This document shows, piece by piece, positions 51,917-51,976 of a stretch of 64,000 nucleotides of DNA (position 1 is its first letter; every line of letters starts with the position of its first letter). The position numbers and the translations under genes were made by a program. Origin of the DNA: Thermoanaerobaculia bacterium (GTDB lineage: Bacteria > Acidobacteriota > Thermoanaerobaculia > Gp7-AA8); the NCBI GenBank assembly GCA_036522835.1, contig DATDFB010000057.1:3906-67905 (forward strand), in the 5' to 3' direction. The notes under the pieces are model-generated. The model made no database searches, was not told where the DNA came from, and was given only the letters and a program-made list of their open reading frames with translations.

Positions 51917-51976
51917 GCGGAGTGCGGCGGCCATGCCGCCGCTGTAACAGCGCCGGCATGGCCGGCGCACTCCACA
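51917..51976. repeat. family 3 double-hairpin repeat (GGAGTG-[hp]-CTGTAACAG-[hp]-CACTCCACA)
   Basis: Right arm ...CACTCCACATG supplies the fmt start codon. Confidence 0.7.

Follow-up and report, generated by a model that had tools for sequence, protein, structure and literature searches.

REP/REPIN-type palindromic repeats at gene junctions and within genes of a Thermoanaerobaculia contig: probable mobile DNA associated with RAYT transposases

The 64,000-nucleotide stretch of DNA analysed here (the window) has a G+C content of 64 to 70% and carries two families of short palindromic repeats, referred to as families 3 and 4. Ten sites were identified in the window, six of them intergenic and four intragenic and in frame. 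The repeats and the genes that they contact are listed below.

4803 to 5915, minus strand: gene for a 370-aa protein with a signal-peptide-like N terminus (judged by eye); its ATG contacts the doublet at 5916
5916 to 5975, no strand assigned: putative family-3 REP doublet between divergent genes, with the head of its left unit directly against the minus-strand ATG at 5915 to 5913
11934 to 11960, no strand assigned: collapsed family-3 element (two heads and a shortened stem) between convergent genes
24618 to 24641, plus strand: single family-4 unit within a bshC-like gene (24517 to 26004; Pfam Rossmann-like_BshC), close to its 5' end and in frame
32153 to 32209, no strand assigned: family-4 GTAG-headed doublet, heads outward, in the spacer from proS to a FadL/TodX-type gene
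39178 to 39206, minus strand: single family-3 unit with its head toward hflX, stopping 1 nt short of the hflX ATG at 39207
39207 to 40460, plus strand: hflX GTPase gene (Pfam GTP-bdg_N, GTP-bdg_M, and MMR_HSR1)
48434 to 48494, no strand assigned: putative family-3 REP doublet, in frame in the gene for a membrane protein of ~1020 aa; encodes ...CGVRWPRHRSDSGGMAAALQI...
50645 to 50672, plus strand: single family-3 unit within a phosphopantetheinyl-transferase gene (50185 to 50736), in its 3' part; encodes LECGGHAAA
51574 to 51915, plus strand: small conserved ORF that precedes fmt, with its TAA stop 0 to 1 nt from the hairpin base
51916 to 51976, no strand assigned: putative family-3 REP doublet (REPIN-like), occupying the entire gap from the TAA at 51913 to 51915 to the fmt ATG at 51976 to 51978
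51976 to 52836, plus strand: fmt, methionyl-tRNA formyltransferase, 286 aa (Pfam Formyl_trans_N and Formyl_trans_C)
53541 to 53588, no strand assigned: family-4 doublet, heads inward and 0 nt apart, in frame in the methyltransferase domain of rsmB (52833 to 53984)

The 24-nt family-3 unit (GGAGTGCGGCGGCCATGCCGCCGC) occurs eight times in the window when up to 3 mismatches are allowed, compared to 0.02 occurrences expected from shuffled sequences, and the family-4 unit (GGTAGGGGCGCACGGCGTGCGCCC) occurs five times, compared to none expected. The sequence check bore out the repeats that an initial annotation of this DNA had reported, with copy numbers far above chance, and added two family-4 sites (53541 to 53588 and 24618 to 24641). 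Each family-3 unit consists of a head (TGTGGAGT or CTGGAGT), a perfect hairpin (GCGGCGGC-CAT-GCCGCCGC), and a T. The head reads (T/C)TGGAGT or TGTGGAGT in the window and TTTGGAGT in other genomes, and its invariant core is GGAGTGCG. In family 4, GGTAG directly precedes the stem, and the hairpin is GGGCGCAC-GGC-GTGCGCCC. The units are 24 to 27 nt in size, each arm being a hairpin in which a perfect 8-bp stem closes a loop of 3 nt, and the arms of a doublet are separated by 5 to 9 nt (0 nt at 53541 to 53588). Family 3 is represented by three inverted doublets with their heads outward, two singlets, and one collapsed form of 26 nt, and family 4 is represented by a heads-outward doublet (32153 to 32209), a heads-inward doublet (53541 to 53588), and a singlet (24618 to 24641).

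No Rfam match at the gathering score was obtained anywhere in the window, and at a permissive threshold the region from 51916 to 51976 gave only generic hairpin (miRNA-precursor) matches, far below threshold. Two further readings of the repeats were dropped: (i) a CRISPR array, because the orientation of the units alternates and there are no fixed-length spacers, and (ii) integron attC sites, because the GTTRRRY attC core is absent.

The window also contains at least four more palindromic repeat families (4723 to 4804, 16329 to 16429, and 19814 to 19928; 2324 to 2403 and 45108 to 45214; 42918 to 43039; and 56471 to 56603), which include AT-richer GAATGCAGAATGC... palindromes, GTGTCATCC(T/C)GAG... 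repeats, GGCCTCCGGCGGGCGGGC... repeats, and nested GATCGAAGAGCG repeats. In addition, ARAGORN predicted a 94-nt tRNA-Cys at 17605 to 17698, within a long high-GC3 ORF (16508 to 17776); no Rfam tRNA reached the gathering score in the window, and the prediction is probably a false positive.

The doublets had been described as an outer inverted repeat enclosing two hairpins. As sequence anatomy (a nested palindrome), the description stands, but the predicted fold is one long hairpin. For each doublet, the minimum-energy fold of either the RNA or the DNA is predicted to be a single long imperfect hairpin, with an RNA folding energy of -51 to -55 kcal/mol for the three family-3 doublets and z scores of -4.9 to -9.8 for the doublets at 5916, 32153, 48434, 51916, and 53541 (-6.7 to -9.8 in a second summary of the doublets). 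When an outer stem with two unit hairpins was evaluated explicitly, the energy was -40 to -44 kcal/mol, which is 7 to 12 kcal/mol worse than that of the long hairpin, and the double-hairpin fold was rejected as being predicted to be ~10 kcal/mol poorer. None of the three family-3 doublets has identical left and right units, yet every unit keeps its own perfect stem. In a search of the window and related loci that was anchored on the left half-stem only, 17 of 19 variant left half-stems (GCGCCGGC and GCGGTGGC) were matched by a compensated right half, a count that supports the unit hairpin but is no formal test, since many of the loci were fetched with a pattern allowing, though not requiring, compensation and since copies inherit changes from one another. 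As far as these sequences tell, the evolutionary signal resides in the unit hairpin, despite the long-hairpin fold of the doublets.

The right arm of the family-3 element had also been reported to run into the ATG codons of fmt and hflX, and both junctions were confirmed: CACTCCAC-ATG is the fmt start at 51976, whose A is the last base of the element, and CACTCCACA-ATG is the hflX start at 39207. A length of 286 aa is the commonest among the closest Fmt homologues listed, and two of these (P0002 and P0004) begin with VRVVFFG and VRLLFFG, respectively, equivalent to a start at 51976. In the public annotation, Fmt begins at an ATG within the right-hand REP unit, in its loop (MAGALHMRLLFFG...; window positions 51958 to 51978), giving 292 aa and not 286 aa.

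The long hairpin at 51916 to 51976 has a predicted folding energy of -55 to -59 kcal/mol and is predicted to pair A51915, the last base of the upstream TAA, with U51977 and to pair U51916 with A51976. We did not see a Shine-Dalgarno sequence between this hairpin and the AUG. In relatives whose Fmt proteins are 89 to 94% identical, the junction reads ...AAGCCG TAG AATCGCGCC(G)CC GTG CGC..., with an 11- to 12-nt spacer and a GTG start, and L070, L071, and L073 have no element at this orthologous junction. The window has the 61-nt doublet in place of the ancestral spacer and an ATG instead of the GTG; an insertion would have swapped out a spacer of 12 nt and changed the start codon from GTG to ATG. 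With a ribosome at the stop codon of the upstream ORF, the hairpin would come apart and the AUG would become accessible, which points to enforced translational coupling; on this model, the translation of fmt probably hinges on ribosomes that complete the upstream ORF and unwind the structure. Work in E. coli on REPs near stop codons and trans-translation has reportedly found that REPs within ~15 nt of a stop codon reduce the expression of the upstream gene, and by analogy such an effect could apply to the ORF at 51574 to 51915.

Overlaps of the ATGA or GTGA type are frequent between neighbouring genes, as seen for the membrane protein and phosphopantetheinyl-transferase genes (50185 to 50188), fmt and rsmB (52833 to 52836), and the sulfatase gene and hflX in L075 to L077 (10001 to 10004). 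Since such overlaps are common in the lineage, any element tolerated there must touch a start codon.

The AUG of hflX is unpaired in the predicted fold, and the fold is no better than that of shuffled sequence (z = -1.4). The hflX unit is common to the window and L074 only (HflX proteins 97% identical), and in L075, L076, and L077 (HflX proteins 88 to 91% identical) there is no unit and the sulfatase stop codon overlaps the hflX start (ATGA or GTGA). The hflX start region is found, in diverged form, on both sides of the unit, a possible duplication of 13 to 15 nt.

The doublet at 5916 to 5975 had been said to adjoin the start of a secreted-protein gene, and CTCCAC-ATG (5915 to 5913, minus strand) does open the gene for the 370-aa protein, the two closest homologues of which are likewise 370 aa long. 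The doublet spans the entire interval from a TATATT -10-like box to the ATG. At the equivalent site, L102, L103, and L104 have TTGAAC...TATAAT followed by 15 nt and the ATG, with no element. The doublet stands in for these 15 nt, so that a transcript from the -10-like box would begin with the hairpin as its 5' UTR. Bases of the minus-strand AUG (5915 to 5913) are paired at the foot of the predicted hairpin.

Copies within genes keep the reading frame. A single frame runs through the doublet at 48434, with a GC3 of ~0.9 on both sides. The same doublet, including its variant left unit, is present in the 92%-identical orthologue of L070 and L071 and is absent from an 84%-identical orthologue, and the site in L072 holds a shorter, unrelated sequence of 40 nt; this distribution indicates an older insertion that is still in frame. 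The single unit at 50645 takes the place of a variable segment of 27 nt (9 aa), leaving the length unchanged with respect to L070 and L072, and, as the sequences read, simple insertion does not account for this length-neutral replacement. In the spacer downstream of proS, the stop codon of proS is the TAG of the left GTAG head, both in the window (32153) and in L076.

Syntenic contigs of relatives, fetched with homologues of Fmt, HflX, and the secreted protein, revealed presence/absence polymorphism at four orthologous sites (fmt, hflX, 5916, and rsmB), the flanking proteins being 84 to 97% identical. At the rsmB site, the window has family 4, L072 (~11575 to 11670) has a GGGGCAGGGCGCAGG-type family, L070 (11556 to 11570, at a contig end) has family 3 (TGTGGAGTGC), and L073 (~1820 to 1850) has only a short GC stretch, which may be a decayed unit. 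This position looks like either an insertion hot spot or a single site with element turnover. The proS-todX spacer holds (i) a diverged orthologous family-4 copy in L076 (3555 to 3615); (ii) a GGTTAGCG-type palindromic family in L077 (2815 to 2900), where the proS stop codon lies inside the repeat; and (iii) a family-3 remnant beside a poly-G run in L075 (3640 to 3715). The site equivalent to 11935 is occupied by copies of two further palindromic families in L102 and L103 and has none in L104. The insertion junctions are not clean: spacers were replaced at fmt and 5916, and the start region is apparently duplicated at hflX. Judged by the orthologous sequences, the behaviour of these sites is that of mobile DNA, unlike that of a conserved regulatory element.

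A transposase that could move such elements was found at related loci. In L024, a Thermoanaerobaculia locus, the identical 24-mer is located 29 nt from an ORF that resembles RAYT genes and contains HUH (NHYHFV) and Y (YVHQNAV) motifs. The predicted protein matched the NCBIfam model NF047646 ("REP-associated tyrosine transposase") with 71.7 bits (E = 5.5e-20; cut-off, 80) and was borderline for Pfam Y1_Tnp (21.8 against a cut-off of 23). Pfam Y1_Tnp was borderline for the RAYTs examined and NF047646 was more informative; two of the RAYT homologues scored above its 80-bit cut-off. In a sample of 25 RAYT loci, comprising L024 and 24 loci obtained from a metagenome scan with the L024 protein, units composed of GGAGTGCG, a GC hairpin, and CGCT(T/G)T were located within ~200 nt of the RAYT gene at 20 loci and on both sides of it at 11. 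The stems differ between these loci and the head is fixed. A RAYT gene flanked by GGAGTGCG units bears what, from sequence, is the defining mark of a RAYT with cognate REPs. The link was made for units with the family-3 head only, and family 4 was linked to no transposase. No RAYT gene was detected in the 64-kb window by tblastn, either with an approximate E. coli YafM query or with the L024 RAYT. At one RAYT locus (L096, 1501 to 2175), the RAYT match is ~150 nt longer than the others and two GGAGTGCG units lie within the matched range, and the transposase gene may be interrupted there by its own repeats.

The unit is widespread. Among the matches listed for species-representative genomes, the core 24-mer is found in many Thermoanaerobaculia and other Acidobacteriota MAGs, at dozens of loci at least, and, with TTT flanks, the core is also found among the matches listed in Brocadiia, Myxococcota, Sumerlaeota, Hydrogenedentes, Nitrospirales, Opitutales, and Gemmatimonadaceae. 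The combination of GGAGTGCG and a GC hairpin flanked by TTT...CGCTTT was seen in L002, L008, L015, L020, L029, L035, L044, L047, L054, and L057 and at RAYT loci L078 to L101. The invariant head, combined with differing stems and loops, suggests a RAYT clade of fixed head specificity that has spread across phyla. Tandem arrays of family-3 doublets were observed in the Thermoanaerobaculia MAG SMAG_U8461 (L014, 1849 to 2239; L018, 1944 to 2365; and L036, 3834 to 4119), with a period of ~155 to 190 nt and ~86 nt between inverted units, resembling the BIME clusters of E. coli or ordered REPIN clusters.

The nature of the linked gene bears on a possible descent of the elements from a DDE-type insertion sequence, as MITEs moved via terminal inverted repeats, with target-site duplications. 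Their palindromic ends do look like terminal inverted repeats, and the presence of the hflX start region on both sides of the unit would fit a duplication. However, the linked gene is a Y1/HUH RAYT and not a DDE transposase, the repeating unit is just 24 to 27 nt and is also found singly, and the junctions at fmt, 5916, and rsmB have no clean target-site duplication; the search for such duplications at the four filled/empty pairs (fmt, 5916, rsmB, and hflX) gave no consistent result. We regard an origin as MITEs as exceedingly improbable.

The initial annotation had suggested that the elements act as 5' UTR structures affecting translation initiation. Part of this holds: three element ends abut real start codons (3 of the 10 heads that face outward in the window), two bases of the fmt AUG (A and U) are predicted to lie in the base of a hairpin of approximately -55 kcal/mol that is followed by no Shine-Dalgarno sequence, and the element at 5916 would form the whole 5' UTR of its gene. 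A census of the window and related loci adds that an ATG opening a long high-GC3 ORF lies 0 to 5 nt outward of the head in 9 of 115 units, a tally in which orthologous duplicates and one or more antisense artefacts are counted, compared to a background of 2.6% for random positions. The enrichment at starts is ~3-fold, but 92% of the units are located elsewhere. It may have simple causes, such as intergenic placement and tolerance in junctions within operons (-4 to +12 nt), at which an element has to touch both genes; the head also often runs on as ...CTCCACA(T), which gives part of an ATG.

These observations could be read as dedicated cis-regulatory structures in the 5' UTR that sequester the start region and thereby govern translation initiation for fmt, hflX, and the secreted protein. 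The evidence speaks against such a dedicated function. The same fmt, hflX, and secreted-protein junctions are empty in relatives whose proteins are 88 to 94% identical, the hflX AUG is free in a fold that does not differ from chance, copies lie within four coding sequences and in one spacer between convergent genes, the great majority of units in related genomes are away from start codons, and the units flank RAYT genes as cognate repeats. We consider this reading quite unlikely, and an effect on translation is probably incidental to individual copies.

Some REPs of E. coli serve as mRNA stabilisers, terminators, or decay barriers, and the elements described here could similarly be RNA-level devices that are kept for their function rather than as selfish DNA. 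The positions of some copies 0 to 20 nt from a stop codon (51916, 11934, and 32153) and the high predicted stability of the hairpins agree with such a role, as does the description of REPs as mostly located downstream of ORFs and possibly acting post-transcriptionally (PMC3733652). However, the hairpins have no following U-tract, some copies are intragenic, the 11935 site is empty in L104, and the families replace one another at a single site in close relatives, so that no specific sequence is retained. An RNA-level function as the reason for their retention therefore seems very unlikely to us.

The interpretation that we favour with considerable confidence is that families 3 and 4 are REP/REPIN-type mobile palindromes that are copied in trans by a RAYT. 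By their sequences, family 4 fits the GTAG class and family 3 is a variant with the invariant head GGAGTGCG. The elements at fmt and hflX are, in our reading, recently inserted copies of a known kind of selfish DNA and not a dedicated translation switch or a new regulatory principle. The unit would consist of a conserved 5' head and a GC hairpin with an 8-bp stem, and inverted pairs of units would make the long hairpins of the REPIN type. The elements would be non-autonomous: an HUH/Y1 RAYT would recognise the head and hairpin in single-stranded DNA, a mode of recognition that we carry over from IS200/IS605 and E. coli TnpA-REP (PMC3479197 and PMC3116915), and would copy them to new sites in trans. 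Copies would persist where they are harmless, i.e., in tiny operon junctions, in divergent or convergent spacers, and in frame in tolerant protein loops; those in tiny operon junctions necessarily touch the neighbouring stop and start codons. The singlets and the collapsed form would be decay products. The repeat counts, the structures, the conserved unit hairpin, the filled and empty orthologous sites, and the RAYT association in relatives are shown here; we infer the RAYT mechanism, from this association and from known systems, and any effects on translation or mRNA stability.

The ancestral spacers that were replaced at fmt (TAGAATCGCGCCGCC; L070, 9985 to 10000, and L073, 245 to 259) and at the secreted-protein gene (TATAATCGCGGCCG; L102 and L103, ~7975 to 8000) have AATCGCG(C/G)CCG in common, and TAATCGC is present at the hflX junction (window positions 39165 to 39180). 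This AATCGCG-like spacer sequence may be a target motif or a coincidence in GC-rich DNA. Together with the reuse of one rsmB codon and of intergenic spots by three families, the shared spacers would mean that REPs are site-directed. In that case, REP insertion would be aimed at the bases just upstream of starts, and REPs would be site-directed remodelers and not passive passengers: the element end ...CTCCACA(T) would replace the old leader and give the A (or AT) of the new ATG, and the hairpin set up at the new start would couple translation to the upstream ORF. We hold this proposal to be unlikely.

A REP/REPIN-RAYT system accounts for the conspicuous repeat pattern in this window of Thermoanaerobaculia, a little-studied soil lineage. 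It also has consequences for annotation, as the public record starts Fmt in a repeat loop, the proS stop codon comes from a repeat head, and four housekeeping or conserved genes carry repeat-encoded peptides. At fmt, hflX, and the secreted-protein gene, loci that carry the element have natural counterparts that lack it, and such pairs offer a means of measuring how a -55 kcal/mol hairpin directly against an AUG affects translation.

A literature search for the literal sequence GGAGTGCGG returned only unrelated primer matches. The comparison with known systems is one of organisation. Like the Rickettsia palindromic elements, the intragenic copies are in-frame palindromes that add a short peptide and leave the gene open (rsmB and the membrane protein, phosphopantetheinyl-transferase, and bshC-like genes), whereas the Rickettsia elements have a CGTC tag (PMC3733652), unrelated sequences, and Rickettsia hosts. 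The subterminal hairpins of IS200/IS605 elements also combine a hairpin with a short adjacent guide or head, which a Y1 HUH transposase recognises in single-stranded form. The RAYTs identified in this work match IS200 models weakly, and, unlike IS200/IS605, the elements described here have no transposase gene between their ends, and the separate RAYT would act in trans.

The GTAG superfamily (Di Nocera et al. 2013, PMC3733652), which includes GTAG-20 of Opitutus terrae with a GTGG tag, was compared by description and not by consensus. GTAG-tagged REPs, including a GTGG variant, form head-to-head and tail-to-tail dimers that are 1 to 2 bp apart; intragenic in-frame REPs encoding 20 to 30 aa are documented in some species, and REPs are also found at the 5' ends of ORFs, with a possible post-transcriptional action (PMC3733652). 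Family 4 is alike in having a GTAG head directly before a stem of 8 to 9 bp, and family 3 often begins with TGTGG, which resembles the GTGG variant, a match by description only. Near-zero-spacer dimers and in-frame intragenic copies, which encode ~16 to 20 aa here, are further common features. Family 3 differs in having three extra bases (AGT) between GTGG and the stem, and its head in many other genomes is TTTGGAGTGCG, without GT(A/G)G.

The closest parallel in organisation is with the REP/REPIN and RAYT systems, namely, the REP/BIME elements and TnpA-REP of E. coli and the REPINs of Pseudomonas fluorescens (PMC3116915 and PMC3337134); REPINs, singlet remnants, and clusters were defined in one of these studies (PMC3116915). 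The elements described here are unlike those systems in their host (Thermoanaerobaculia, Acidobacteriota), in a very short spacer (5 to 9 nt, or 0 nt), in a family-3 head, (T/C)TGGAGT, that is not the canonical GTAG, in the absence of a RAYT gene from the window, and in a large intragenic share (4 of 10 sites), which is unusual for "extragenic" elements. They are alike in the unit of a head and a hairpin, in inverted doublets that form long hairpins, in singlet remnants and tandem clusters, in cognate units that flank a single RAYT gene, and in presence/absence between close relatives.
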